From Candidatus Moranbacteria bacterium GW2011_GWC2_37_8 (lineage in GTDB: Bacteria > Patescibacteriota > Minisyncoccia > Moranbacterales > GWC2-37-73), in NCBI GenBank assembly GCA_000992165.1, contig LBTS01000001.1, positions 705-43,406 of the forward strand: a stretch of 42,702 bases of DNA, read 5' to 3'. Position 1 is the first letter of the stretch. Every line of letters starts with the position of its first letter. A program made the position numbers and the translations under genes. Positions 4,274 to 28,559 of the stretch are shown here, in pieces. Below the pieces are notes generated by a model that worked only from the letters and a program-made list of their open reading frames with translations, was not told the DNA's origin and did not search any database.

Positions 4274-5779
4274 CTAAAGCTCATTCCAAAGATCTATCGT
4301 ATAGTATACATCACTAGGAAAAAATGGTGGTGGATTCATGTATAAAAAATTATCATATTCTATATTCTTAACTTGAAAACCGACTTTGTCTGTGCCATTA
4401 CAATCTTTTGAAGCAGTAAACTCTATGAATTTATTTGAAACGACTGAGCCATACAAATCTAGTCTGTTTTTTTGAACTTCACATCCACCTCCACAACAAT
4501 GGGGATTAAAATCCTGCTTACCAATCATTCCATCCTTAGCAACCATGGCGGCATCAATTTCCAAATCATCGCAATCAGCCCCACAATTTTTCTTTTCACT
4601 AGTTAGAAGTATATTTCGCTTAGCAATAAGCCCTACAGCATCAGTGCCATCCCTGTTGGTATATCTCAAATTTCCACTTCCGATATAGATATCGCCAACG
4701 CCTTCTCCTGCAGCTATTGTCACCCTGTCCCCATCAACCGTTCCGTCAACCCAAACATTTCCACCCACAAAAATTATTCCGTCATCGGGAATAGTCTTTG
4801 TTTGTTTTGTAGCGGCATCTTCATTCTTAATGTCATTGGAATTATTCTTTACATCCTTAACTGTCACGATATCAAATTGTCCATCAGTGCGAAGTGTGAG
4901 ATGTTTTCCAGCTTTACCAGCTGGAACATTAAAATAACAATGATCATCCAAACAATTATTAACTATCGTATCATTGGGAGCTTGCGCATATTTTTTCATC
5001 ACATTAAGATCGACAGCTATACCTGCGAAATCCTTCTGCGGAACAGGGAATTTTTTTCCACCAAGAAATACGCAGCTACTTTTATCTGCGTTATATTCGC
5101 AATTTGGAAGTGGAAATACGCCAAGAGGTTGCGAACTCCAAACACCAACATGGTCCTGACCAGTAATCGGATCGAAATATGTCGAAGATCCAGCATAAAC
5201 TCTGCCATGAGATATGCCATCAAAACGGACTCCGGTGTTGCTCATAATGCGTCCTTTAATATCCCAGTTTGAATCGAAATTTGCATACTCGTTACTAAGA
5301 ACTACATAGTCACTCCATGAAGTCCTCCTGAACCTGACTTTTATTTTTTTCTTAATATTAGGATTATCCAAAGAGGAAGCTTCGAATTCAACAACTATTG
5401 GTGTGTTTGTCGAGACAGTAGCGTTTGTTATAAGTGCACTACAATAGCCTATCGTCGTACCAGCGCTTGTCTTCACATCCCATGTGTAGGGCTCATCCAA
5501 TCCGCGCGGTTTTGGATCAGTCTCGCTCCAAAATTCAGCCACTTCTTCAATTGTATGGCCATCCGTGTTATGAGCAAGATACCAGCGATATTCATTAGAA
5601 CAAGCTTCAGCCATTTGAAAGGCTTTCTCTCTGGCAACCGCGTCATAGCCTGACCTTGCCTGAGAAGCAATCAACTGAACCAAACCAACCAAAAGAATTG
5701 AAACGAATGTCACAATTCCAAGTGCATAAACAAGCACCGATCCTTTGTATGTTTTATTTCGCATAAATTTAAGACTCAT
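4274..5779 (-). CDS. large PilX-N-like pilus-associated protein
   Basis: N-terminal hydrophobic segment GSVLVYALGIVTFVSILLVGLVQLIAS without a G/F cleavage motif, as in PilX_N. Cys-rich C-terminal region. Overlaps the upstream pseudopilin gene. Confidence 0.6.
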   Translation of the reverse strand: MSLKFMRNKTYKGSVLVYALGIVTFVSILLVGLVQLIASQARSGYDAVAREKAFQMAEACSNEYRWYLAHNTDGHTIEEVAEFWSETDPKPRGLDEPYTWDVKTSAGTTIGYCSALITNATVSTNTPIVVEFEASSLDNPNIKKKIKVRFRRTSWSDYVVLSNEYANFDSNWDIKGRIMSNTGVRFDGISHGRVYAGSSTYFDPITGQDHVGVWSSQPLGVFPLPNCEYNADKSSCVFLGGKKFPVPQKDFAGIAVDLNVMKKYAQAPNDTIVNNCLDDHCYFNVPAGKAGKHLTLRTDGQFDIVTVKDVKNNSNDIKNEDAATKQTKTIPDDGIIFVGGNVWVDGTVDGDRVTIAAGEGVGDIYIGSGNLRYTNRDGTDAVGLIAKRNILLTSEKKNCGADCDDLEIDAAMVAKDGMIGKQDFNPHCCGGGCEVQKNRLDLYGSVVSNKFIEFTASKDCNGTDKVGFQVKNIEYDNFLYMNPPPFFPSDVYYTIDLWNEL

Positions 5780-6380
5780 TTAAATTTCGAAGTTCAACGA
5801 CAGATTCAAGATTGACATTTTCAGGAGCGACAATTGGTCTGATATTTATCCAGAGATGCAAGCGCACCAAGCGTGTATCATACGCAGTAGGAGAAGACAT
5901 GGCATCTTCAGTAAGGATTGGAAATCTGTTGTCATAATATGAAAAGAAAGGTTTTGATGTTGTTAGGTTAGTAACATAATTCAAAAGCACTTCAACAGTT
6001 GCATCATCTGCCGCATATGAACCATCAACAAATTTTGTGACTCCTTTTTTAAGTTTTTCTTCATTATCGACAAAGTAATGGACTCTCTCAGCACTGCCAT
6101 CACCATCCTCATCCCTGTAAACTATCATGGAATACTCCTCAGTTTCTTTGATTGGGTAAGATCCATCATCACCTTGCCTTATAGCTCGCAGCTCATGCAC
6201 AAGTTGAGTGATGACTCTTGAAGCTGAAGCAGTCGCAGTCGCTTGTTCAAGAACATATCCTTTATAATTCCAAGCTCTTGCTGATAGAAGCGTGAATGCG
6301 ACCATGCCCAAGCTTAAGATAGTTATTGCGACAAGCAATTCAACCAATGACATCCCCTTTTTTATACTGTGTTTTTTCAT
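5769..6380 (-). CDS. prepilin-type N-terminal cleavage/methylation domain protein (pseudopilin)
   Basis: Class III signal KKG|MSLVELLVAITILSLGM. ATGA overlap with the upstream gene. Confidence 0.8.
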   Translation of the reverse strand: MKKHSIKKGMSLVELLVAITILSLGMVAFTLLSARAWNYKGYVLEQATATASASRVITQLVHELRAIRQGDDGSYPIKETEEYSMIVYRDEDGDGSAERVHYFVDNEEKLKKGVTKFVDGSYAADDATVEVLLNYVTNLTTSKPFFSYYDNRFPILTEDAMSSPTAYDTRLVRLHLWINIRPIVAPENVNLESVVELRNLNES

Positions 6381-7842: not shown

Positions 7843-9069
7843 CTATTTAATATTATCCAGCATGCTATACATCGGCATAAGCATAGCTACCGCAAAAAAC
7901 CCAACAGCCGCTCCAATGACAACCATAAGCAAAGGTTCTATGACAGCTGAAAGATTTTTTGTTATCTGGTCAACTTCATCTTCATAAAATTCAGCCAACT
8001 GCAGCAGCACTACTTCCGTCTTACCAGTCTCTTCTCCAACTTGAACAATTTGCGAAACCAAAACTGGAAAAATGTCACCATGATCAGAAAGAATCTTGCT
8101 TAGACTCACACCTTTTTGAATATCCTCCACACTGCCGATTAAAACTTGTTGGTAGTAATGATTAGTTAGAGTCCTGGAAATAATTTTTAGGGCATCCACG
8201 GCGCCAACGCCACTCTTAAGAAGTGAGCTATAAATCCTAGCGAAACGTGCGCAATTCATCTGCTTTATTAATGGACTAAAAATTGGAAATTTGATTGCAA
8301 CCCAACTTACCGTTTTCTTACCACTCGGCTGTCTTAGGAAATATTGCAAAAATATCGCAACTGCAAAAAAGACAACTGCCACCATTAACCCATTGTTTTT
8401 CAATAAATTACTCATATCAACAATGAATTGTGTCATTGCTGGAAGTTTCGCATTCATATCTTTAAAGACACCCATCAATTTTGGAAGCACATATGTCAAC
8501 ATGATAATTCCAATAATAAACATCACCGTCAAAATAACCGCTGGATAAATCATGGCCCCTTTAACCTTACTTTTCAAGTCATGCTCCTTCTCTAGTTGTA
8601 CTGCCACGATTTTCAAAACTTCATCAAGATTTCCAGCTGTTTCTCCGACTCTAACCATATTAACAAAAAGTTCACCAAAAATATTTACATATTTTTCAAG
8701 ACCCTCACTCAAAGATTTCCCACTCTGTATTTCCTCATCAATATCTAAAAGAATTTTTTTAAATGATTTATTTTCTGTCTGAAGTGCCAAATTATTAACA
8801 GCGCGAGAAACCGTAAGTCCTGAAGCAACCATGATGCTTAAATTTCTTGCAAAAACCATTTTCTCTTTAAGTGGAATGGAAATGAATTTATCAAAAAAAT
8901 TAGTCTTTCCAGCTATTTTTGCTTCTTCTTCCTTAACTAATGAAATTGAAGTCACCAAATAACCTTCAGCTCGAAGTTGTTGAGCAACATTTTTTTCATC
9001 CTGAGCAACTATCTCTCCACCCTTAGTTTGCCCACTATAACTTTTGGCAGTATAAATAAATTTTGGCAC
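7843..9069 (-). CDS. pilC: type IV pilus platform protein PilC (T2SS F family)
   Basis: 408 aa with duplicated GspF-type domains and three TM regions. Sits directly downstream of pilB. Confidence 0.9.
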   Translation of the reverse strand: MPKFIYTAKSYSGQTKGGEIVAQDEKNVAQQLRAEGYLVTSISLVKEEEAKIAGKTNFFDKFISIPLKEKMVFARNLSIMVASGLTVSRAVNNLALQTENKSFKKILLDIDEEIQSGKSLSEGLEKYVNIFGELFVNMVRVGETAGNLDEVLKIVAVQLEKEHDLKSKVKGAMIYPAVILTVMFIIGIIMLTYVLPKLMGVFKDMNAKLPAMTQFIVDMSNLLKNNGLMVAVVFFAVAIFLQYFLRQPSGKKTVSWVAIKFPIFSPLIKQMNCARFARIYSSLLKSGVGAVDALKIISRTLTNHYYQQVLIGSVEDIQKGVSLSKILSDHGDIFPVLVSQIVQVGEETGKTEVVLLQLAEFYEDEVDQITKNLSAVIEPLLMVVIGAAVGFFAVAMLMPMYSMLDNIK

Positions 9070-9116
9070 GGACTTACTTACAACTTATAACTAATAACTT
9101 GCAACTCCTGGGTTGC

Positions 9117-9151
9117 GTTATTGGTTATTGGTTATTGGTTATTGGTTATTG
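9117..9151. repeat. five perfect tandem copies of heptamer GTTATTG
   Basis: Read directly. Lies between the pilB stop (9154-9156) and the pilC start (9069). Confidence 0.95.
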
Positions 9152-9153
9152 GT

Positions 9154-10902
9154 TTATTCTTTTGTTACTCTCATAACTTCTTCCAGAGAAGTTATGCCTG
9201 ATGCAGCTTTAATAAATCCATCCTCGCCCATGGTTTGCATCCCTTTTTCTCTTGCCCGCTTCTCTATATCATCGGATGATGCGTTAGATGTAATCAACTT
9301 ACCTATTTCCTCGTCCATTTCCAATACTTCATAAATACCTTGTCGTCCTTTATATCCCTCATTTGAACATTGTTCGCAACCTTTCGGTCTGTAAAAATCA
9401 ATATTTTTCCAATTGCTTTTAGCGTTTATTTCAGAAGCAAGTTGCGGAGTATCCTTAAGCATTTTCAAGATTTCATCCATATTAAAATTCGAACTTAAGG
9501 CAGCCACATCTTTTTCGTCCAGCTTATAACTAACTTTGCATTCATTGCAAAGTTTTCGTACAAGCCTTTGACCGATAACCACATTAACTGTTGATGCCAC
9601 CAAAAATGCTTCCGCACCCATATCCAAAAGACGAGGTAGTGTTCCTGCGGCGCTATTCGTATGCAAAGTTGAAAGTACTAAATGTCCAGTCATAGCGGCT
9701 TCTACTGCGATTTGCATGGTTTCGCTATCGCGAATTTCTCCAACCATAATAATATCAGGATCTTGACGCAAAAGACTTCTAAGTGCAGCTGCAAAAGTCA
9801 TTCCGATTTTTGCATTCACTTGAGTTTGATTGACTCTCATCATGCGATATTCGACCGGATCTTCTACTGTGCTAATATTCACCTCTGTCGTGTTCAAAAT
9901 ATCCATAACAGTATACAAAGTCGTTGTTTTTCCGCTGCCAGTAGGACCAGTAACTAAAACCATTCCATTAGGACGCTTGATGTGTCTATGCACGACTTCC
10001 AAGGCATTACCAGTAAGTCCCATTTTCTCCAAAGTCAAACCTTTTGATGTTTCATCAAGCAAACGCATAACTATTTTTTCACCTTCGAAAACAGGCAGAA
10101 TACTAACACGAAATGAAATCCTGTAGCCTTCCTTTTCTATTTTAAAACGTCCATCTTGAGGCAAGCGGTGTTCATCCAATTTCAAACTAGAAAGCACTTT
10201 GATACGAGCAACCAATCCTTCCATGACTTGCCGCGGAAGGGTCATAGCGTCGTGCAAGACGCCATCAATACGATACCTTACGCGTACTTCTTTTTCATCA
10301 GGCTCAATATGTATATCACTGGCTGATTGTAAGATTGCATGCTTAAGCAAAGTATCAACAATTCGTACAATCGGAAGATCTTGCGCTATTTTTTCCAAAT
10401 CATCAGCCTCTTCGCCAACCGCAACATTGTCAGAATCTTTACTGATGATATCTCCGAATTCCGCCTTAAGACTTTTCTCATATTGCCTTAAAATTGCCTT
10501 GATACTTTCATCACTAGTTAAACATGGCACAATTTTAAGACCAGTTTTTTTTCTGATAAAATCTATTGTTTGAATATCTTCAGGATTTTTCATGGCGACC
10601 TTCAGATCATTGCCATCCTTTTCAAAAGCTACGATTCCATATTTTTTAGCAATCGGCTCTGGAATTATCTGCAAGATATCAGCCGTAATTGTTTCTTTTT
10701 CAAGATTTACATACGGAATGCCAAGTATATAAGAATAAAGTTTACGAAGTTCAGTTTCGCTAACCAATTTTTTTTCCAACAATAAATCACCCAGCTTTTG
10801 GTTGGTTTCATTAGCAAGTTTAAAATTTTCATCGACAACTGCAACTTCCAGCAAATTTGAGTCGAGTAAAAATTCCTTGAGTTGTTTATTTTCAATCCTC
10901 AT
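9154..10902 (-). CDS. pilB: type IV pilus assembly ATPase PilB (GspE family)
   Basis: Walker A GPTGSGKTTTLY, GspE-type N-terminal domain, C-terminal CxxC pair (CNEC...CEQC). Confidence 0.95.
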   Translation of the reverse strand: MRIENKQLKEFLLDSNLLEVAVVDENFKLANETNQKLGDLLLEKKLVSETELRKLYSYILGIPYVNLEKETITADILQIIPEPIAKKYGIVAFEKDGNDLKVAMKNPEDIQTIDFIRKKTGLKIVPCLTSDESIKAILRQYEKSLKAEFGDIISKDSDNVAVGEEADDLEKIAQDLPIVRIVDTLLKHAILQSASDIHIEPDEKEVRVRYRIDGVLHDAMTLPRQVMEGLVARIKVLSSLKLDEHRLPQDGRFKIEKEGYRISFRVSILPVFEGEKIVMRLLDETSKGLTLEKMGLTGNALEVVHRHIKRPNGMVLVTGPTGSGKTTTLYTVMDILNTTEVNISTVEDPVEYRMMRVNQTQVNAKIGMTFAAALRSLLRQDPDIIMVGEIRDSETMQIAVEAAMTGHLVLSTLHTNSAAGTLPRLLDMGAEAFLVASTVNVVIGQRLVRKLCNECKVSYKLDEKDVAALSSNFNMDEILKMLKDTPQLASEINAKSNWKNIDFYRPKGCEQCSNEGYKGRQGIYEVLEMDEEIGKLITSNASSDDIEKRAREKGMQTMGEDGFIKAASGITSLEEVMRVTKE

Positions 10903-21352: not shown

Positions 21353-21516
21353 ATGTTTATGTTTGAAAAAATAATTAACTATCTTGTGACGTATAATACA
21401 ATGTGGTTTAATTTCTCTTTCCTTGGGCTGGCGGAGCCATCATTTATGAATTGCATTATCATTTAGTATCCTGCTATAATCAAGATGTTAGAGTATTCTT
21501 ATTATATTTCTCACCT

Positions 21517-21984
21517 ATGAATAATAAACCTCTTATCACTCTATTCGAGGAAAATGAGATGAATATTGCTGCTCTCTATTCACTCTACGCGCAGCAGCTT
21601 CCAGAGCAAACTGTTTTTTGGAATCGAATGTCCAATGAAGAAATCGGCCACGCCGCGCAAATTGGAAACGAAAAAGATGACAGCGAAGAAGCCATTCCTG
21701 AAAACAAGTTTTCACGCGGCATCATCAAATATTTGATGGATTTTGTATTGGATGAAATAAACAAAGCCCAACATCATCCCCTCTCACACCGCGACGCGCT
21801 GCTTACCGCTCTACGCATCGAGCAATCCATGCTTGAAAGAAAATGCTTTGACCTTTTTCTTCCTACCAAGAAAACGTTGCAAGAGGTTTTTTTCAAGCTC
21901 AACCGCGAAACTGAAAGACACGTGGAATATTTACAAAAAGAAATGAAAAAAAATAAGTTCAGTTTCAAAGAACCTTCCAAGTGA
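21517..21984 (+). CDS. ferritin-like four-helix protein (tentative)
   Basis: Paired E..H motifs (NEEIGHAAQ, ETERHVEYL) suggest the ferritin/rubrerythrin-like superfamily. Start taken at MNNKPL. Confidence 0.45.
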   Translation: MNNKPLITLFEENEMNIAALYSLYAQQLPEQTVFWNRMSNEEIGHAAQIGNEKDDSEEAIPENKFSRGIIKYLMDFVLDEINKAQHHPLSHRDALLTALRIEQSMLERKCFDLFLPTKKTLQEVFFKLNRETERHVEYLQKEMKKNKFSFKEPSK

Positions 21985-22010: not shown

Positions 22011-22042
22011 AAAAAATTACGTAACTAATTACGTAATTTTTT
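22011..22042 (+). terminator. AT-rich terminator hairpin
   Basis: AAAAAATTACGT / ACGTAATTTTTT 12-bp stem followed by a T-run, 27 nt after the stop at 21984. Confidence 0.5.
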
Positions 22043-22050
22043 GTTTATGC

Positions 22051-22101
22051 CGAGGTTGCGGGAGTCAATCCGAACTTATTTGATTGAATATGGGTATTAA
22101 A
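22051..22101 (+). repeat. left copy of a ~50-bp direct repeat bracketing the abiE cassette
   Basis: CGAGGTTGCGGGAGTCAATCCGAACTTATTTGATTGAATATGGGTATTAAA matches 23549-23600 with about 5 substitutions and 1 indel. Confidence 0.85.
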
Positions 22102-22109
22102 TTCAGCTA

Positions 22110-22138
22110 TTGCCTTATTTGTTATAATTTGCTATAAT
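22110..22138 (+). promoter_or_regulatory. promoter of the abiEi-abiEii operon
   Basis: TTGCCT, 17-nt spacer, TATAAT (22133-22138), 40 nt upstream of the abiEi ATG. Confidence 0.6.
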
Positions 22139-22178
22139 GTAACTAGGAAGGGTTTTTAATACCCCCTTAAGTAAACAT

Positions 22179-22775
22179 ATGGATAATAAACCAGCAAAAA
22201 GAGCCTATTTAGAGGCAATATTAAGATCAGCTCGAACAGTCTTTTCTTCAAAAGACGCTGCTTTGATGTGGAATGAGAATAATGTGGCCACTATCAATGA
22301 CAGATTAAAGAAATATGTTAAAACCGGAAAATTGATCAGAGTGCATCAAGGTTTTTATGCTAAAGATGAAAATTATGACCGCATGGAGTTAGCATCTAAA
22401 ATATATACCCCCTCTTATATCAGTTTTGAAACCGTTTTGACTCGCGAAGGAATCAATTTCCAATATTACGGAAATATTTTTATTGCATCCTATTTGAATC
22501 GCGAAATTGAAGCCAATGGTCAGAAAATATCCTATGTACGCATGAAAAATTATGTATTGAGCAATGCAGTAGGAATTGAACATCGAAATGATGTCGCTTG
22601 GGCAACCAAGGAGCGCGCCTTTTTAGATCGATTATATGTCACCAAGGAATATCACTTTGATAATTTGAACCCATTGGATTGGGACAAGGTTTTTGAAATT
22701 GTGCCAATCTATAACAACAAGCGATTAGAAAAGAAGGTTAAAGAATACTATACTAATTTTGTAAACAAAAAGTAA
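22179..22775 (+). CDS. abiEi: AbiEi-family (type IV TA) antitoxin-like transcriptional regulator
   Basis: 198 aa with an N-terminal wHTH-like region (FSSKDAALMW...LKKYVKTGKLIRVHQGFY). Sits 1 nt upstream of an AbiEii-family gene. Confidence 0.65.
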   Translation: MDNKPAKRAYLEAILRSARTVFSSKDAALMWNENNVATINDRLKKYVKTGKLIRVHQGFYAKDENYDRMELASKIYTPSYISFETVLTREGINFQYYGNIFIASYLNREIEANGQKISYVRMKNYVLSNAVGIEHRNDVAWATKERAFLDRLYVTKEYHFDNLNPLDWDKVFEIVPIYNNKRLEKKVKEYYTNFVNKK

Positions 22776-22776
22776 T

Positions 22777-23469
22777 ATGTTTAATTACGCAAAACACAAA
22801 AGCATTCTATTGCAGATTCTAAAGGATGTGTACACCGACACCACCATTTCACCTTATCTCGGTTTCAAGGGTGGGACAGCTGCCTTGTTATTTTATGGAT
22901 TGAATAGAAACTCTGTCGATTTGGATTTTGATCTTTTAGACGACACTAAGGAAAAAGAAGTTTTTGAAAAGTTGCAAAAAATAGTTACCAAGTACGGCAC
23001 GGTTGAAGATTCACATATAAAACGTTTCAATCTGCTTAATGTCATTTCATACGCAACTGGGGCACAGAAAATTAAGGTTGAGGTTAACCGGAGGCAGTTC
23101 GGTTCTCACTATGAAATAAAAACATTTCTGGGAATTTCCATGTTGGTTATGACTCCGCCTGACATGTTTGCTCATAAGCTCATGGCTATGTATGAACGAA
23201 TTGGCAAAACAAGTCGGGATATTTTTGATGTGTATTATTTCTACAAACAAGGCTGGGAAATAAACAAAGAGATTGTCGAGCAAAGAGCGGAAATGTCATT
23301 CAAAGAATTGCTACTCAAATGCGTTGGAATGCTGGAAAAAACAGACAACAAACATATTCTTGATGGCTTAGGAGAATTCCTGAGCGAACAACAAAAAGAT
23401 TGGTCTCGCGCCAAACTTAAAAGTGAAACGATATTCTTTTTGAAAATGGCAGTTGAAAATGAGAAATAG
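22777..23469 (+). CDS. abiEii: AbiEii/AbiGii-family nucleotidyltransferase toxin
   Basis: LGFKGGTAALLFYGLNRNSVDLDFD motif typical of DUF1814/AbiEii nucleotidyltransferases. 230 aa. Confidence 0.8.
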   Translation: MFNYAKHKSILLQILKDVYTDTTISPYLGFKGGTAALLFYGLNRNSVDLDFDLLDDTKEKEVFEKLQKIVTKYGTVEDSHIKRFNLLNVISYATGAQKIKVEVNRRQFGSHYEIKTFLGISMLVMTPPDMFAHKLMAMYERIGKTSRDIFDVYYFYKQGWEINKEIVEQRAEMSFKELLLKCVGMLEKTDNKHILDGLGEFLSEQQKDWSRAKLKSETIFFLKMAVENEK

Positions 23470-23548
23470 ATTGCAATCTTCGAACCCATAATTCTTGCTT
23501 TAAATAAAACGAAAACAGACTCCTTTGCAGAAGTCTGTCCTCACTTGT

Positions 23549-23600
23549 CGAGGTTGTGGGAATCGATACGAACTTATTTGATTGAACATGGGTATTGAAA
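23549..23600 (+). repeat. right copy of the ~50-bp direct repeat bracketing the abiE cassette
   Basis: CGAGGTTGTGGGAATCGATACGAACTTATTTGATTGAACATGGGTATTGAAA. Confidence 0.85.
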
Positions 23601-23605
23601 AACAG

Positions 23606-23645
23606 AAAACCCACCGAAGCAGATTTTCCGCTGGTGGGTTTTTTT
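23606..23645. terminator. bidirectional terminator
   Basis: AAAACCCACC ... GGTGGGTTTT stem with a T-run on both strands. Lies between the abiE operon (+) and the 74-aa gene (-). Confidence 0.7.
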
Positions 23646-23868
23646 AGTTGAAGCCTTCAATGAATTTTTTAACTTCCTCGCGCGAACGCAAGTTGCCTGT
23701 CATCTTTAGCATCATGCCAAGCTGAATTGCAGGGTGGCCAGCTGTTTCGGTATGTTTTCCCAAATCAGAAAACATAGATGTCATTGCATTTTCCAGGTCG
23801 CCACGCTCAATATATTCCAGAGCGCGCTTTTTGCACCAATCCATGTGTTCTTGCCGTGTCTTTTCCAT
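23644..23868 (-). CDS. hypothetical 74-aa protein
   Basis: Start at 23868 is preceded by a consensus AGGAGG 6 nt upstream. No recognisable domain. Confidence 0.6.
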   Translation of the reverse strand: MEKTRQEHMDWCKKRALEYIERGDLENAMTSMFSDLGKHTETAGHPAIQLGMMLKMTGNLRSREEVKKFIEGFN

Positions 23869-24137
23869 GTGATTCCTCCTTGTTGGTGGTATGTGAATGA
23901 AAACTGCGCCAATTTGCCAATATGCTAAATCCATTTTTCAGATTTAGATTTTTCAAGTTACTAACAAACAAGCATAGCATATCAAAGCTAATTTGTCAAG
24001 CACCCCAGCGATTCTCTCTTATTTAAGCCTAAATATTAACTCCCGCAGTTGTTAGGCGTGCAAAAAATTCCATTTTTTGCTTACAGGCCGTATTTCAAAT
24101 CGTTCCGACGGCAGTCAAGGGAGTAAAGCCGAGCGAT

Positions 24138-24151
24138 GGGGCGCAGGGATT
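24138..24151. repeat. left copy of the 14-bp direct repeat (putative att core)
   Basis: GGGGCGCAGGGATT is identical to 28490-28503 inside tRNA-Pro. Confidence 0.8.
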
Positions 24152-24300
24152 TACGCGTCACTCTTTCGTCGACACTCAAGAGTTCCTTGTCCTGGGCAGC
24201 GCTGAATGCTCCTATGGTCGCATCCATCGACGCACACTGCGTTATTGTTCTGCTGAACAATAACTTGTTTAGCTTCTGCCCGTTCGAATCCTTGCGCAAG

Positions 24301-24353
24301 ATACATAAGAAAAACAGGATGACTCAAAAAGTCATCCTGTTTTTCTTATGTAT
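24301..24353. repeat. perfect 24-bp inverted repeat (hairpin, 5-nt loop)
   Basis: ATACATAAGAAAAACAGGATGACT-CAAAA-AGTCATCCTGTTTTTCTTATGTAT. Confidence 0.95.
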
Positions 24354-24474
24354 GTCGAGTGTCGTAGGTCGTGTTAGAACGGCAATTCAAGAGTCAAATG
24401 CTTACATCCATATACCCGACTTGAAGGAGTTTGCTTGAAAAATTCACTGTATCATATCTTATAGTTTGCGTATG

Positions 24475-24498
24475 CTGATGTTGACCATCAGTTTTTTT
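24475..24498 (+). terminator. intrinsic terminator on the plus strand
   Basis: CTGATG-TTGAC-CATCAG followed by TTTTTTT. No convincing protein gene lies upstream on this strand. Confidence 0.6.
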
Positions 24499-24626
24499 GT
24501 TTTTCAATATGTGGGGTGCTTATGTTTCAATGAAGTCAAGCTTTGGAGTTAAAATCACTTGCTCCCATCTCAGCTAAATTTCTAATATGTAATAAGACTT
24601 ACTATAAATAGTTAGCAATAAAAAAA

Positions 24627-24650
24627 AGCCAGAGTTTTTACGCTCTGGCT
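24627..24650 (-). terminator. terminator of the 286-aa orphan gene
   Basis: AGCCAGAG / CTCTGGCT stem and an 8-nt T-run on the minus strand, about 40 nt after the stop at 24691. Confidence 0.7.
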
Positions 24651-24690
24651 ATTATGCGAATTTCTTGCTTAGTCTTTTCAGGACATCTTT

Positions 24691-25551
24691 CTAATTATTC
24701 TGAAAAAACAATTCGTTTACTTTCTCTATAACTTTTTTTGAGTCATCTTCTGAAAGCAAAGCTCTTTTTTCAAGAAGGTCTTCCCATCTTGAATTGATAT
24801 CCCATCTCTGTTGTTCAGCAGTCTCAACATAGGAAGCTCCAACCGCCGTATGACCTCCCGTAACCTTGCCCTTTTCGTCTCTTGTTTTTTCCCAGCCTGT
24901 AATGGTTTTATCCTCAAGTCCATCGAGTAATTGTGGGAATAAACCGTTTGTTGACCTCAAGGAATAAAATATATTTCCAATCAAAACACTGCTAGGTTTA
25001 GTTTTTTCTAGTGACGAAATAAAATCAACAAACACTCGGTAGTTAGGATGACCTTCGATATATTTAAGCACTACTCTCATGTTATCACTGCGTTCTAAAA
25101 CTGGTTCAGGGTTTTCATTTACAAGTTTATCCCAAAAGGCTTTTGCAACTTCTTGATTTTTTGCACGGTCAAGGGATGCAACAATGAAAGAAAAATTTTC
25201 CAGTTCATGGTCAAATGTACCCGTGTTGTATTTATCCAGCAAAGGTTTCAATGATGTTTTGTTTATCATTTCTACTAACTGCTTAGGGTCTGTTTCAAGC
25301 CCCTCACGATTACCATTCATCACATCATTCATAAGCTGATTAAACTTACGAAACGCATTGATACGTTCATTTACATTTTTTTCAATGCCTGCTTCATTTG
25401 CAATAGTTTCTACAACCTCTTTAAGCTCTTCCTGTTTCTTTATAAGTTGTTCTCTCTCATTGCTCATCTTGCTTTCCTCTGGAGACATCATTGACTTTGC
25501 CTTGAACTCTTCTTTGATGGTTGGATTGTATCCCATTTTTTCATTTTCCAT
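24691..25551 (-). CDS. hypothetical 286-aa protein (element cargo)
   Basis: AAGGGGG Shine-Dalgarno 9 nt upstream of the ATG, plus its own terminator. Charged coiled-coil-like N-terminus. No domain recognised. Confidence 0.7.
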   Translation of the reverse strand: MENEKMGYNPTIKEEFKAKSMMSPEESKMSNEREQLIKKQEELKEVVETIANEAGIEKNVNERINAFRKFNQLMNDVMNGNREGLETDPKQLVEMINKTSLKPLLDKYNTGTFDHELENFSFIVASLDRAKNQEVAKAFWDKLVNENPEPVLERSDNMRVVLKYIEGHPNYRVFVDFISSLEKTKPSSVLIGNIFYSLRSTNGLFPQLLDGLEDKTITGWEKTRDEKGKVTGGHTAVGASYVETAEQQRWDINSRWEDLLEKRALLSEDDSKKVIEKVNELFFQNN

Positions 25552-25707
25552 AGTTTTGTTCCCCCTTGTTAAATTACTTATTTATTTTTTGATTATTATG
25601 GCTTCATTGAGCTCATTTACATCCATTATAGCATGCTTTACGGCTTTTGTCTATCCTTTCATCATATTTACTGATATAGTTTGTGTATATCAATAAAATA
25701 CATTAGC

Positions 25708-26328
25708 ATGAAAAAATTAAAATTAGATTCAGATTTTATTTGGATACTTAAAACAATCAAGCATATCAGCAATGCAAACAATGGCAATGCGTTTGAATAT
25801 CTCTTTGATGACGTGCTAACCCTTGAAGGTGCGCCGGCTGTAAGAAGCATCCATGAAGGCACGATTAGCCAGTTTGAGGCAATGGGTGTGATTAGCGCAC
25901 AGGAAATAGGCAATGCCTTACATGATGGAGTATTCAAATTGGAGGGATTCAAGATTCAAATTTTGAAATCCAAGTTTGATGAAATTCAAAAAGAACTATC
26001 CATTCAAAAATCAGCAGTAAAAACTTATACTTCTCATTTTTTCGACAGCAAGGCGCTAATTAAAATCAACACGCAAGACATTCCATTGCCTGCATATGCC
26101 AATGAACACCTTCTTTGCAGAGTTATGTTTGAATACATGATAGGAGAACCAGTGGATTGGTCTATTATTTTTGAAAAAATGACAGGTGATGAGCCCAAGG
26201 ATAAAAATAAGAATTCAAGAATGGTCAGAGATACCATGCATGCAGTCAATGAACGAATCCATGAGCTTGCAAAAACAGAAAGAGACCTTTTTGAATGGAA
26301 AAACAAATGCATCAAAAGACTTTTTTGA
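25708..26328 (+). CDS. hypothetical protein, possible C-terminal winged-helix DNA-binding region
   Basis: Divergent from the 286-aa gene. The first ATG is at 25708. The tail SRMVRDTMHAVNERIHELAK..LFEWKNKCIKRLF resembles OmpR-type wHTH ends only weakly. Confidence 0.55.
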   Translation: MKKLKLDSDFIWILKTIKHISNANNGNAFEYLFDDVLTLEGAPAVRSIHEGTISQFEAMGVISAQEIGNALHDGVFKLEGFKIQILKSKFDEIQKELSIQKSAVKTYTSHFFDSKALIKINTQDIPLPAYANEHLLCRVMFEYMIGEPVDWSIIFEKMTGDEPKDKNKNSRMVRDTMHAVNERIHELAKTERDLFEWKNKCIKRLF

Positions 26329-26332
26329 AAAT

Positions 26333-26359
26333 GTGAGTCAGTGAGTCACAGGTGAGTCA
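26333..26359. repeat. three copies of the word GTGAGTCA
   Basis: GTGAGTCA at 26333-26340, 26341-26348 and 26352-26359, just after the stop at 26328. Confidence 0.9.
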
Positions 26360-26440
26360 CATCCACAAATTATACCATTGAGCCAAGATTTATATTTTGG
26401 CTTTTTTGTTTTGCAAAACATTACCGCCGAACCCATACTC

Positions 26441-26644
26441 ATGCAATTCAGTGATGAATCAATAGAAAAATTTCGAATGCTCTACTCTCAGCGTTTCGGC
26501 AAAGACCTTGACCGCAAGACTGCTTTTGAATATGCACAGAAACTTTTTCGAGCCATTGAACTCACTTATGTTCAGATGTCAGTTGCAGACTTCAAAAATT
26601 TGCAAAAGCGTCGCAAAGAAACTAAGCCAGATTCTCACCATTAG
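26441..26644 (+). CDS. hypothetical small protein (67 aa from the first ATG)
   Basis: The ORF track starts at a TTG at 26378. First ATG gives MQFSDESIEKF. No Shine-Dalgarno and no recognised domain. Confidence 0.4.
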   Translation: MQFSDESIEKFRMLYSQRFGKDLDRKTAFEYAQKLFRAIELTYVQMSVADFKNLQKRRKETKPDSHH

Positions 26645-26865
26645 CAAAATTTCGCTACCTAAGCCATTTTCTCAGCTTTAGCACTCATCCATGCATCACG
26701 CAGTCTATAGCCATTCACCGCAGTCATAATCCAAATACTCTCAATAAGTCCTATTGCTAACCATTCATCAAATACATTTATGCGAGCCAGAGCTTCTCCA
26801 AAATCATATCAGATACGACGTTAGAAATAATTCTTAACCTTGGGCAGTATTGTGTATAAAATGGC

Positions 26866-26894
26866 TTGTATAAGCCTAAATATCGTCCTATAAT
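26866..26894 (+). promoter_or_regulatory. promoter of the serine recombinase gene (would give a leaderless mRNA)
   Basis: TTGTAT (26866-26871), 17-nt spacer, TATAAT (26889-26894). The ATG lies 6 nt after the -10 box. Confidence 0.55.
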
Positions 26895-26900
26895 ACAAGC

Positions 26901-28517
26901 ATGAGCAAAAACGAACAAAAAATCCACTATATCCTGTATGCACGCAAGTCATCCGAAGATGAAAGGCGCCAAGTGCAGTCTATTGAAAACCAGATTCAAA
27001 TAATGTTGGACAAAGCCAAGGCATTAAAATTGCATATCGTTGATGTTTTGCAGGAATCAAAATCAGCCAGAAAGCCAGGCAGACCAGTCTTCAATGAGAT
27101 GATGGAAAGAATCAAACGGGGTGAAGCGGATGGAATTTTAACATGGCATGCAAATCGTCTTTCAAGAAATCCATTGGATGCGGGCAATGTTCAATGGGCA
27201 CTGCAAAATGGAACTATCCGCTCAATCATGACAAATGACAGGGAATATTTACCAGAAGACAATTCTCTCATGCTTGGAATGGAATGTTCCATGTCTGAAC
27301 AATACAGCAAAGACTTAAGCAAAACCGTAAATAGGGGGCTTCTCAGAAAAGCGAAGGAGGGCTGGCTTCCAAATCTTCCACCAACTGGATATATCAATGA
27401 CAAAGTGAACAAGATAATCATCAATGACCCCGAGCGTTTTCATTTGGTTCGCAAAATTTGGGACTTGATGCTTACTGGAAACTATACTCCTCCGCAGATT
27501 CTCAAGATTGCCAATGATGAATGGGGATTCCGCACACGAAAATATGAAAAGTCTGGTGGTGGCAAACTTTCAAGAAGTGGAATCTATAAAATGCTTACCA
27601 ATGGATTTTATCTTGGCTTTTTTTACAAGAAAGGTGAACTTTTTGAAGGTAGCCATGAAAGGATGATAACTGTTGATGAATGGGACAGAGTACAGACACT
27701 CTTGGGACGCAAAGGCAAACCAAGACCAAAGAAACACTCCTTCGCTTTCACCGGTGCGATTCGTTGCGCCGAATGTCAATGTCTTATTACAGCAGAAACA
27801 AAGAAAAAAATCATCAGGAAGACTGGTGAAATTCGCAGTCACACCTACTACCATTGCACCCACAAACGAACGGACATGAAATGTTCACAGCGTAAAAACA
27901 CCTTAGAGTCAGGACTAGAACTAATGATAGAGCAAGAGTTAGACAAATATACGATACTACCAGAGTTTAAAGAATGGGCAATGGAAGAATTAAACAAGGC
28001 TAATGACAACGAGATTGAAACAAGGACTAAGATGTATGAAATGCTACATAAAGCCTATACAGAGGCACAGAAGCAACTAGACACGCTCACAAAGATGAGA
28101 TACAGAGACCTAATCAATGACGAGCAGTTTCTTAGGGAGAGCAGAATACTTGAAGCTGAAATAGCTAAGCTAAAAGAGAAATTAGGCACCACAGAGGCAC
28201 GAGCGAAGCAATGGTTGGAGCTTACCGAAAAAACCTTTGAATTCGCTACTTATGCCAGAAATGCATTCCTCAAGGGTAATGACACGCTCAGAAAAGAATT
28301 GCTTTTGACTTTAGGTCAGAACCAAATACTTGGAAACCAAATACTCACTCTACAAGCGTATGAATGGTTTGTTCCTATCAGTGAAGACTATCCAAAACTT
28401 AAAGCTGAATATGTGAAGGTTAGAACCAATAAAAAACTATCTACAAAAGCAAAAACAGATGCTCTCACATCTGTTCGTGCACACTGGTCGGGGCGCAGGG
28501 ATTCGAACCCTGTCTAA
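26901..28517 (+). CDS. large serine recombinase / integrase
   Basis: Resolvase catalytic domain (YILYARKSSEDERRQVQSIENQ, HANRLSRN), recombinase domain, zinc ribbon (CAECQC...YYHCTHK..C) and a long coiled coil. The last ~11 codons are tRNA-Pro sequence. Confidence 0.9.
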   Translation: MSKNEQKIHYILYARKSSEDERRQVQSIENQIQIMLDKAKALKLHIVDVLQESKSARKPGRPVFNEMMERIKRGEADGILTWHANRLSRNPLDAGNVQWALQNGTIRSIMTNDREYLPEDNSLMLGMECSMSEQYSKDLSKTVNRGLLRKAKEGWLPNLPPTGYINDKVNKIIINDPERFHLVRKIWDLMLTGNYTPPQILKIANDEWGFRTRKYEKSGGGKLSRSGIYKMLTNGFYLGFFYKKGELFEGSHERMITVDEWDRVQTLLGRKGKPRPKKHSFAFTGAIRCAECQCLITAETKKKIIRKTGEIRSHTYYHCTHKRTDMKCSQRKNTLESGLELMIEQELDKYTILPEFKEWAMEELNKANDNEIETRTKMYEMLHKAYTEAQKQLDTLTKMRYRDLINDEQFLRESRILEAEIAKLKEKLGTTEARAKQWLELTEKTFEFATYARNAFLKGNDTLRKELLLTLGQNQILGNQILTLQAYEWFVPISEDYPKLKAEYVKVRTNKKLSTKAKTDALTSVRAHWSGRRDSNPV

Positions 28518-28559
28518 ATGATCCCAAATCACTCGTGCTACCGTTGACACCACGCCCCG
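28485..28559 (-). tRNA. tRNA-Pro (anticodon UGG) with encoded CCA
   Basis: 75-nt cloverleaf: acceptor CGGGGCG/CGCCCCG (C1-G72), anticodon loop TTTGGGA, T-arm CAGGG-TTCGAAT-CCCTG, A73 then CCA. Confidence 0.9.
28490..28503. repeat. right copy of the 14-bp direct repeat (putative att core) inside tRNA-Pro
   Basis: GGGGCGCAGGGATT is the complement of tRNA-Pro T-loop end, T-stem 3' strand and acceptor positions 66-71. Confidence 0.8.

Follow-up and report, generated by a model that had tools for sequence, protein, structure and literature searches.

A long direct repeat around an abiE cassette in a Moranbacteria genome read as two tails of self-splitting serine integrases

Introduction

Tandem accretion at tRNA genes and other hotspots that leaves decayed, recombinase-less units has been documented for cis-mobilizable elements (CIME), integrative and conjugative elements (ICE), and integrative and mobilizable elements (IME) (PMC5704250, reviewing Pavlovic 2004 and Bellanger 2011). 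Composite staphylococcal cassette chromosome (SCC) islands, located at orfX/rlmH of staphylococci, are built by serine recombinases (PMC7029136). Here, we compare with these systems a locus in Candidatus Moranbacteria bacterium GW2011_GWC2_37_8, a member of the candidate phyla radiation (CPR). The window, that is, the whole stretch that we analyzed, comprises 42,702 nt of contig LBTS01000001.1 (positions 705 to 43,406), and within it an abiEi/abiEii gene pair is bracketed by a long, imperfect direct repeat. From its reading frame and its homologues, we identify this repeat as the 3′ end of a large serine integrase gene. With a probability of about 0.72, the region is a tandem array of integrative elements that accumulated at a tRNA-Pro hotspot and then decayed, in which the repeat represents two integrase tails and the abiE unit has lost its integrase.

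Results

The repeat and its reading frame

A repeat search of the window returned a two-member direct-repeat family, 22048-22101 and 23546-23599, with a length of 54 nt, 47/54 identical positions (87%), and a spacing of 1498 nt. The 28-nt core of the repeat occurs exactly twice in the window, compared to zero occurrences expected from 100 shuffles. The pair brackets the promoter, abiEi, and abiEii, and the ~50-bp imperfect repeat that a preliminary description of this stretch had placed around these features is thereby borne out. The whole assembly (826 kb in 48 contigs, 80% complete) holds two copies of the 54-mer, both in the window, so the repeat is not dispersed genome-wide. Further copies, a search for which had been proposed in the same description, occur at 88-92% identity in G031, G030, and G018, three genomes from another genus of the same family. 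Pattern scans of public genome and metagenome contig collections recovered the 54-mer only from these three and their source metagenome contigs, and a pattern scan of a viral contig collection recovered no copy.

Every known copy is the end of an open reading frame (ORF) in one common frame. Copy 1 reads ATG CCG AGG ... TAA (M-PRLRESIRTYLIEYGY) and copy 2 reads TTG TCG AGG ... TGA (L-SRLWESIRTYLIEHGY), with both stops at the same position; the G031 copy reads MSRLWESIRTYLIEHGY* in this frame. The seven differences between the window copies include three synonymous changes and one exchange of stop for stop, and in 3/5 copies the stop codon is the limit of conservation. The pattern of substitution is that of a protein C-terminus, and homologues of that C-terminus are full-length integrases. 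We identify the 54-nt repeat as the 3′-terminal coding segment (17 codons and the stop) of a large serine integrase gene, which replaces the earlier suggestion of a duplicated 3′ untranslated region or terminator module.

The integrase family was delineated from the integrase of an intact element that resides at tRNA-Pro, 750 nt to the right of the unit formed by copy 1, abiE, and copy 2. A search of 1.8 billion representative proteins yielded 6,523 relatives of this resident integrase at E ≤ 1e-10. Non-integrated relatives share a conserved C-terminus, ...FEP..K.K...[WL]xxLxx[DE][VI]RT[YFA].. (for example, P0061, LLRLYDKIRTYFERSEK / ...MFEPQKDGENKRTLGDLYSQSPMLLRLYDKIRTYFERSEK), while integrated relatives end in tRNA-derived, ...DSNP-like residues. 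The window tails fit the form ...RL[WY][ED]x[VI]RTY[LF]xE, and with a 16-column profile built from 25 intact tails, the three window tails (the two repeat copies and that of the resident element) rank first (E 0.003), third, and fourth among 2260 six-frame peptides. Integrases of this family carry attP within their own gene. Because attP lies within the gene, integration in the last bases of tRNA-Pro would place the gene body at the tRNA end (attR) and a short tail at the far end (attL). In a sample of the order, integrases of this self-splitting family were present in 89/201 genomes, often in several copies per ~1-Mb genome.

An occupied site and empty sites in relatives

At the syntenic locus, G031 carries an intact 4.5-kb element. 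The order there is an endonuclease III and glyoxalase neighborhood, cassette X with a hairpin, the tail with a terminator, two small minus-strand genes, segment Y, ORF243, a rolling-circle Rep, the large serine integrase, and tRNA-Pro. The integrase (8784-10268; 494 aa, with Resolvase, Recombinase, and Zn_ribbon_recom domains) runs into tRNA-Pro (10238-10310) and ends ...DIATM|SGRRDSNPV*, the last nine codons being the reverse complement of the tRNA 3′ end. Its tail (5735-5788) lies 4.5 kb away from the body, preceded by ...TTTTTTGTTGATG|TCGAGG. G001, from the same genus as our genome, and G018 have an empty attB, with TCGGGGCGCAGGG of tRNA-Pro following immediately on the same hairpin and spacer. 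The split between tail and body in G031, taken together with these empty sites, places the attachment site inside the integrase gene, with the last 17 codons split off on integration. G031 and G018 are also relatives with a single copy and no abiE at the syntenic locus, a configuration that the preliminary description had proposed looking for. The G031-type element encodes its rolling-circle Rep upstream of the integrase (L008 7912-8787; PF23343, E 4e-22; RepSA-like similarity), and for this reason these 4-5-kb elements are probably replicative, plasmid-like or single-stranded-DNA-type integrative elements.

Two copies with different junctions

Copy 1, the orphan integrase tail (P′ arm; 22047-22100, plus strand; M PRLRESIRTYLIEYGY*), has the structure of an attL. 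To its left lie ORF177 (21451-21984, plus strand), a chromosomal gene with no Pfam match and a homologue at the same locus in G001, and then the B arm (22011-22049), which consists of a bidirectional terminator hairpin (22011-22042; perfect 14-bp stem, -11.9 kcal/mol) and the spacer TTTTTTGTTTATG, which is also found before tRNA-Pro at the empty attB sites of G018 and G001. We identify copy 1 as an attL, in which the chromosomal B arm (terminator and TTTTTTGTTTATG|) is joined to the integrase tail. The codon next to the crossover is mutated from TCG to CCG, and two of the three private changes of copy 1 are non-synonymous; with its core mutated, this site looks dead. The palindromic terminator of the B arm, AAAAAATTACGTAA-N4-TTACGTAATTTTTT, also occurs at many places in G001 and in G002, another genome of this genus, with 87-97% identity, and in G021 (L018) it makes up the B arm of a different integrase tail.

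For copy 2, the reading frame is open from the abiEii stop codon straight into the repeat, and the 76 nt in between, hairpin included, are an integrase reading-frame remnant and not an intergenic spacer. This stretch has no DNA homologues in the family, and its identity is clear only at the protein level. A 55-column profile built from intact relatives only matches the peptide of 23470-23595 contiguously across the crossover (35 bits; E 1.5e-9 in the window and 2.8e-8 in the genome), and nothing else in the genome matches the profile at E ≤ 0.01. To the left of copy 2, the B-arm signature, a T-run-GTT.ATG spacer, is missing. We identify copy 2 not as an attL but as the end of a contiguous 42-codon unsplit fragment (P arm, crossover, and P′ tail) followed by its own terminator. 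The fragment, a 5′-truncated integrase 3′ end on the plus strand (23470-23598; IAIFEPIILALNKTKTDSFAEVCPHL-SRLWESIRTYLIEHGY*), has an attP-like P-O-P′ arrangement and includes both copy 2 (23545-23598) and the hairpin 23515-23538 (plus strand, -10.2 kcal/mol; minus strand, -20.4 kcal/mol). In a DNA alignment, this hairpin corresponds to ACAGATG...CATCTGT, an inverted repeat close to where the resident integrase body ends. The preliminary description was right that both copies are preceded by sequences that fold, although the second hairpin belongs to coding sequence. The terminator, bidirectional and at 23606-23645 (AAAACCCACC...GGTGGGTTTT), follows other integrase tails across the family, and copy 2 and terminator together are 95.8% identical to G031. 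The private changes of copy 2 are all silent. Preceding tail 2, the P arm belongs to the major "FEP...KTKTD...H[WL]" type; the G031 integrase, with a near-identical tail, ends ...TPKNADIATM instead. An unsplit integrase remnant of the same kind as copy 2 was found in G030 (E 8e-6).

Several other identities of the repeat were considered and rejected. Neither ARAGORN nor Rfam, at gathering and E-value thresholds, found a tRNA or tmRNA fragment at the 54-mer or its relatives. A structured RNA or attC was set aside for lack of a fold signal in the 54-mer (z-scores +0.68 and +0.32), and minus-strand coding was set aside by eye, the substitutions falling off the third codon positions in that frame. 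An integron gene cassette is not indicated either: the nearby recombinases are all of the serine type, with no IntI tyrosine integrase, and the 54-mer gives no fold signal. With two genomic copies, no Rfam match, and no structure, the repeat does not resemble a dispersed intergenic repeat or a small RNA family. Transposon target-site duplications are short (2-14 bp), identical, and placed around an element with a transposase or terminal inverted repeats. As already argued in the preliminary description, the repeat is no such duplication, being 54 nt long and 87% identical, with no transposase or terminal inverted repeats nearby.

The abiE cassette

The cassette (22105-23469, plus strand) consists of a predicted promoter, abiEi (22179-22775), and abiEii (22777-23469). 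The sigma-70-like promoter, read from the sequence, has TTGCCT at 22110-22115 and TATAAT at 22133-22138, separated by 17 nt, and this one promoter precedes both genes, which lie 1 nt apart. AbiEi matches the PADLOC AbiEi model at E 1.1e-57, and AbiEii matches Pfam PF08843 at E 4e-19 and the PADLOC AbiEii model at E 3.5e-77. By these matches, the genes are annotated as an AbiE type IV toxin-antitoxin and abortive infection pair. The abiE cassettes of other genomes are homologous from 22105-22107 up to, at most, the stop at 23469, and their flanks differ from genome to genome. The distribution is patchy, as abiE is present in 51/201 genomes of the order. G001 has another gene instead of abiE at this locus, beside its empty attB. 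In G002, abiE (L056, G002:C58, 5243-7674) lies in the glyoxalase-to-tRNA-Pro locus, flanked by a fragment of X and a full X cassette, and its neighbors are ArsR, a cation-diffusion (CDF) transporter, a thioredoxin-like gene, and a permease gene.

Sixteen public contigs encoding an identical AbiEii show the same architecture, with 100% identity over the shared stretch, and no structural variants of the locus were seen among them. The viral contig collection held no relative of abiEii. Independent public assemblies from this population break or have gaps exactly in the abiE promoter and 5′ untranslated region (22119-22169), with Ns in L063 and with L065 and L066 starting at 22170, and one public contig ends at 23537, just before copy 2. 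These breaks could reflect strain heterogeneity or low coverage.

The right side of the array

To the right of the terminator lie a small orphan cargo gene of a second, G031-like element remnant (23644-23934, minus strand) and element Y (24036-24120, plus strand), a conserved internal segment of G031-type elements that is 91.8% identical to G031. Y is ~92% conserved across genera within these elements (L008 6660-6744; L009 6222-6336). The window copy of Y stops midway through a long hairpin. In G031, the sequence following Y completes this hairpin (CCGACGGCAGTCAAGG...CCTTGACGGCCTAGTCGG), immediately downstream of a perfect TTGACT-17-TATAAT promoter. Y may be a leader or an origin.

Cassette X, a structured sequence beside tRNA genes, follows with its hairpin (24138-24353, plus strand; X 24138-24300, hairpin 24301-24353) and forms the B arm of the attB of the resident element. 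It is a GC-rich dispersed cassette that sits directly behind tRNA genes (Pro, Leu, Glu in tandem, and Asp) on the opposite strand, with further copies at G000 C11:12727-12867, C22:5999-6267, C16:31060-31166, and C48:5456-5595. In every copy, the 3′ part of the tRNA next to it is repeated at both ends, directly at the start and inverted at the end. We considered an attR scar at 24130-24151 (ATG|GGGCGCAGGGATT) and rejected it: the X cassettes of G018 begin with the same direct tRNA-Pro copy, without the ATG.

The resident intact element (24349-28559, plus strand) comprises tail 3 (24349-24438; SSVVGRVRTAIQESNAYIHIPDLKEFA*), cargo, the integrase (26901-28517), and tRNA-Pro (28485-28559, minus strand). 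Its integrase ends ...RAHW|SGRRDSNPV* and is also self-splitting at tRNA-Pro. In a hand alignment, the P′ arm of this integrase matches the first 26 nt of the 54-mer at ~13/26 positions. The G031-type integrase, Rep, and ORF243 were not found in the window's own assembly, 80% complete, and tblastn returned only distant integrases at ≤33% identity.

Discussion

From left to right, the array consists of ORF177 with the B arm, tail 1 (attL), abiE, the last 25 codons of an integrase body, the crossover, tail 2 with its terminator, the small gene, truncated Y, the X cassette with its hairpin (a canonical attB arm), the resident element, and tRNA-Pro. We propose that two related elements, E1 and E2, came to lie head to tail at the tRNA-Pro hotspot. 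E1 would have carried abiE directly downstream of its integrase stop codon, and E2 would have been a G031-like element with tail and terminator, small gene, Y, and further parts. They may have been joined by a non-canonical recombination between the attP of one element and the attL or attR of a resident element. A circle attP recombining with a resident attL or attR is expected to give this kind of pattern, as is the integration of a multimer, and either joining route would lead to attL(B-O-P′1) - E1 - (P1-O-P′2) - E2. A deletion could then have left only the last 25 codons of the E1 integrase, and E2 would have lost everything beyond Y. Later, the pristine attB (X cassette, hairpin, and tRNA-Pro) would have taken in the present intact element. 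Both tails would be fossils today, and abiE would be a stranded addiction or defense module in a recombinase-less unit bounded by att-derived repeats. We infer the order of these events and the non-canonical recombination step. The suggestion in the preliminary description that the cassette was gained by recombination at a reusable site holds insofar as the repeat is the P′ arm of a site-specific recombination site; it does not hold for a generic cassette site, and the two copies are not equivalent.

How abiE came to lie between the tails deserves separate consideration. It most likely reached the locus through integrase-mediated events, and we favor abiE as cargo of E1 over an independent entry into the E1 remnant because a single deletion then suffices. 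Since no cognate integrase is left in the assembly, the pair could now be lost only by slow, RecA-type homologous recombination between the copies (54 nt, 87% identity). Several observations weigh against the history proposed here. Textbook large serine integrases recombine only attP with attB, and the recombination of attP with attL or attR is both non-canonical and unproven for the self-splitting integrase family. The tail type of the 54-mer is known from four genomes only. Across the 201 genomes of the order, abiE (51 genomes) and the integrase family (89) never lie within 10 kb of each other, and abiE was therefore rejected as a regular cargo of self-splitting-integrase elements. An intact element with abiE beside an integrase tail was not found. 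Given this and the lack of co-localization, abiE could have entered the E1 remnant independently. In G002, abiE is at the same locus, but inverted and without tails. Finally, with the genome 80% complete, the cognate integrase could be unassembled.

Other histories would also yield a cassette between two tails. There is a small chance that one element integrated as a head-to-tail dimer, for example, as a Rep-made multimer, giving attL - unit - internal attP - unit - attR, and that the first unit was later mostly replaced by abiE while the tails drifted apart. With the rolling-circle Rep of G031-type elements, multimers are plausible, a dimer would predict the unsplit internal junction that is seen, and the sharp limits of abiE homology with differing flanks elsewhere indicate that the cassette moves on its own. 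However, the copies differ at 7/54 positions and share no derived state relative to G031, G030, and G018, each being as close to these as to the other copy, and the all-silent private changes of copy 2 set against the mostly replacement changes of copy 1 fit separate histories. In addition, the P arm that leads into copy 2 (FEP...KTKTD...HL) differs from the G031 body end, which points to a hybrid junction of two different elements. We favor two distinct elements over a dimer because of this P arm and the absence of a shared derived character. That same hybrid junction, combining the P arm of one clade with a G031-type tail, hints at a further scenario to which we likewise assign a low probability, in which the tails are working secondary attachment sites and elements of the family would routinely recombine their attP with the attL or attR of a resident, exchange tails, and in this way capture and pass on single-operon modules such as abiE. 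The unsplit remnant in G030 and a tail-plus-terminator pair around one gene in G004 are further hints of this kind. The G004 pair, on the reverse strand of L017 (G004:C2, 700-1560), consists of two decayed tails of another type (...EEFNLS[WL]I*), 739 nt apart, both with a conserved AAACAGAAAACCCACC terminator and with a single minus-strand gene between them, and is a second case of tails around a one-gene unit.

Simpler accounts, in which the repeat arose without an array, fare worse against the flanks of copy 2. It is improbable that abiE was inserted into a single pre-existing site and duplicated 54 nt in the process, by a very long target-site duplication or a Campbell-type crossover with a circle bearing the 54-mer. 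Such an insertion would account for the outer flanks, since copy 1 retains on its left, and copy 2 on its right (terminator), the ancestral sequence seen on either side of the single G031 copy, and for relatives that have one copy and no abiE; yet the left flank of copy 2 is neither insert-specific nor target DNA but 25 more codons of integrase body. Moreover, 13% of positions differ between the copies and no derived sites are shared, the neighborhood contains no transposase, and we know of no transposition mechanism that makes 54-bp duplications. Neither a relative with hairpin, tail, and terminator intact nor an abiE-free strain that differs by the 1498-bp unit alone was encountered, which likewise counts against the insertion. 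The copies might instead be ordinary attL scars of two successive canonical integrations at tRNA-Pro, with attB regenerated in between, as the X cassette may have done for the third element. Copy 1 is indeed a canonical attL by its sequence, X cassette and hairpin lie between the older remnant and tRNA-Pro in both the window and G018, and G018 has an empty attB, but for copy 2 this account is contradicted by a left flank of in-frame integrase coding sequence without a B arm, and we regard it as very improbable. We give hardly any credence to the repeat being a functional module in itself, whether as a small RNA, a micro-ORF of 17 codons, an operator, or an attC of the integron kind that would mark exchangeable cassettes. 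Its ~90% conservation across genera and the ATG at the start of copy 1, G031, and G018 would be in keeping with such a role, but there is no Rfam match, fold signal, or integron integrase, no Shine-Dalgarno sequence is visible, the start sits in the terminator T-run, and conservation that ends at the stop codon in 3/5 copies is the pattern of an integrase C-terminus.

The reading of the region as a decayed tandem array has several implications. It explains a long flanking repeat as a gene fragment, and it suggests that long direct repeats around cargo near tRNA genes may elsewhere be the split-off ends of recombinase genes, which are easily missed under ORF size cut-offs. It provides a second lineage for the self-splitting integrase next door, along with possible swapping of tails between elements, and a likely instance of a defense or addiction module outlasting its vehicle. 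The locus and its relatives also offer candidate natural sites for an uncharacterized clade of large serine integrases, enzymes of practical interest for DNA integration: attB in G001 and G018, attL and attR in G031, and the attP-like junction at 23470-23598. Should the tails prove to be working sites after all, they would amount to integron-like cassette exchange run by serine integrases in CPR bacteria.

One comparison is with the resident element (24349-28559), which has an integrase of the same family, attP within the gene, a split-off tail, and the conserved [VI]RT motif. It differs in being intact and in having a 27-codon tail with ~50% DNA identity to the 54-mer, whereas the window copies are orphan remnants of another, G031-type lineage. 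The integration-dependent immunity of mycobacteriophages, reportedly described by Broussard et al. in 2013 with attP inside the repressor gene, is similar in that the att site lies within coding sequence and integration changes the C-terminus of the product. There, however, a tyrosine integrase acts, and integration splits the repressor gene instead of the integrase gene; to our knowledge, tandem fossils have not been described for it.

Tandem arrays of integrative elements may form and decay in tiny CPR genomes much like the CIME/ICE and SCC arrays of better-known bacteria. The unit of copy 1, abiE, and copy 2 is recombinase-less, bounded by att-derived repeats, and next to an intact element, in the manner of a CIME or a pseudo-SCC element. 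CIME arrays (PMC5704250) and SCC islands are its closest parallels. As in CIME arrays, several att-derived direct repeats in the same orientation lie beside the target gene, an integrase-less unit stands beside an intact element, and cargo is stranded between att copies. CIME systems employ tyrosine integrases, and their attL, attI, and attR have one core in common, which remains recombinogenic; in the window array, the recombinase is a large serine integrase, the repeat is an arm encoding the C-terminus of that same enzyme, and the internal junction is attP-like and unsplit. With SCC islands (PMC7029136), the array shares the stacking of large-serine-recombinase elements at one chromosomal site, the presence of pseudo-elements without a recombinase, and the delimitation of modules (ars, CRISPR, and ACME in SCC) by imperfect direct repeats of the integration site. 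The SCC repeats are ~18 bp long and derive from the 3′ end of the target gene, whereas the window repeat is 54 nt long and derives from the integrase gene itself, at a tRNA target and in a CPR host with a sub-megabase genome.

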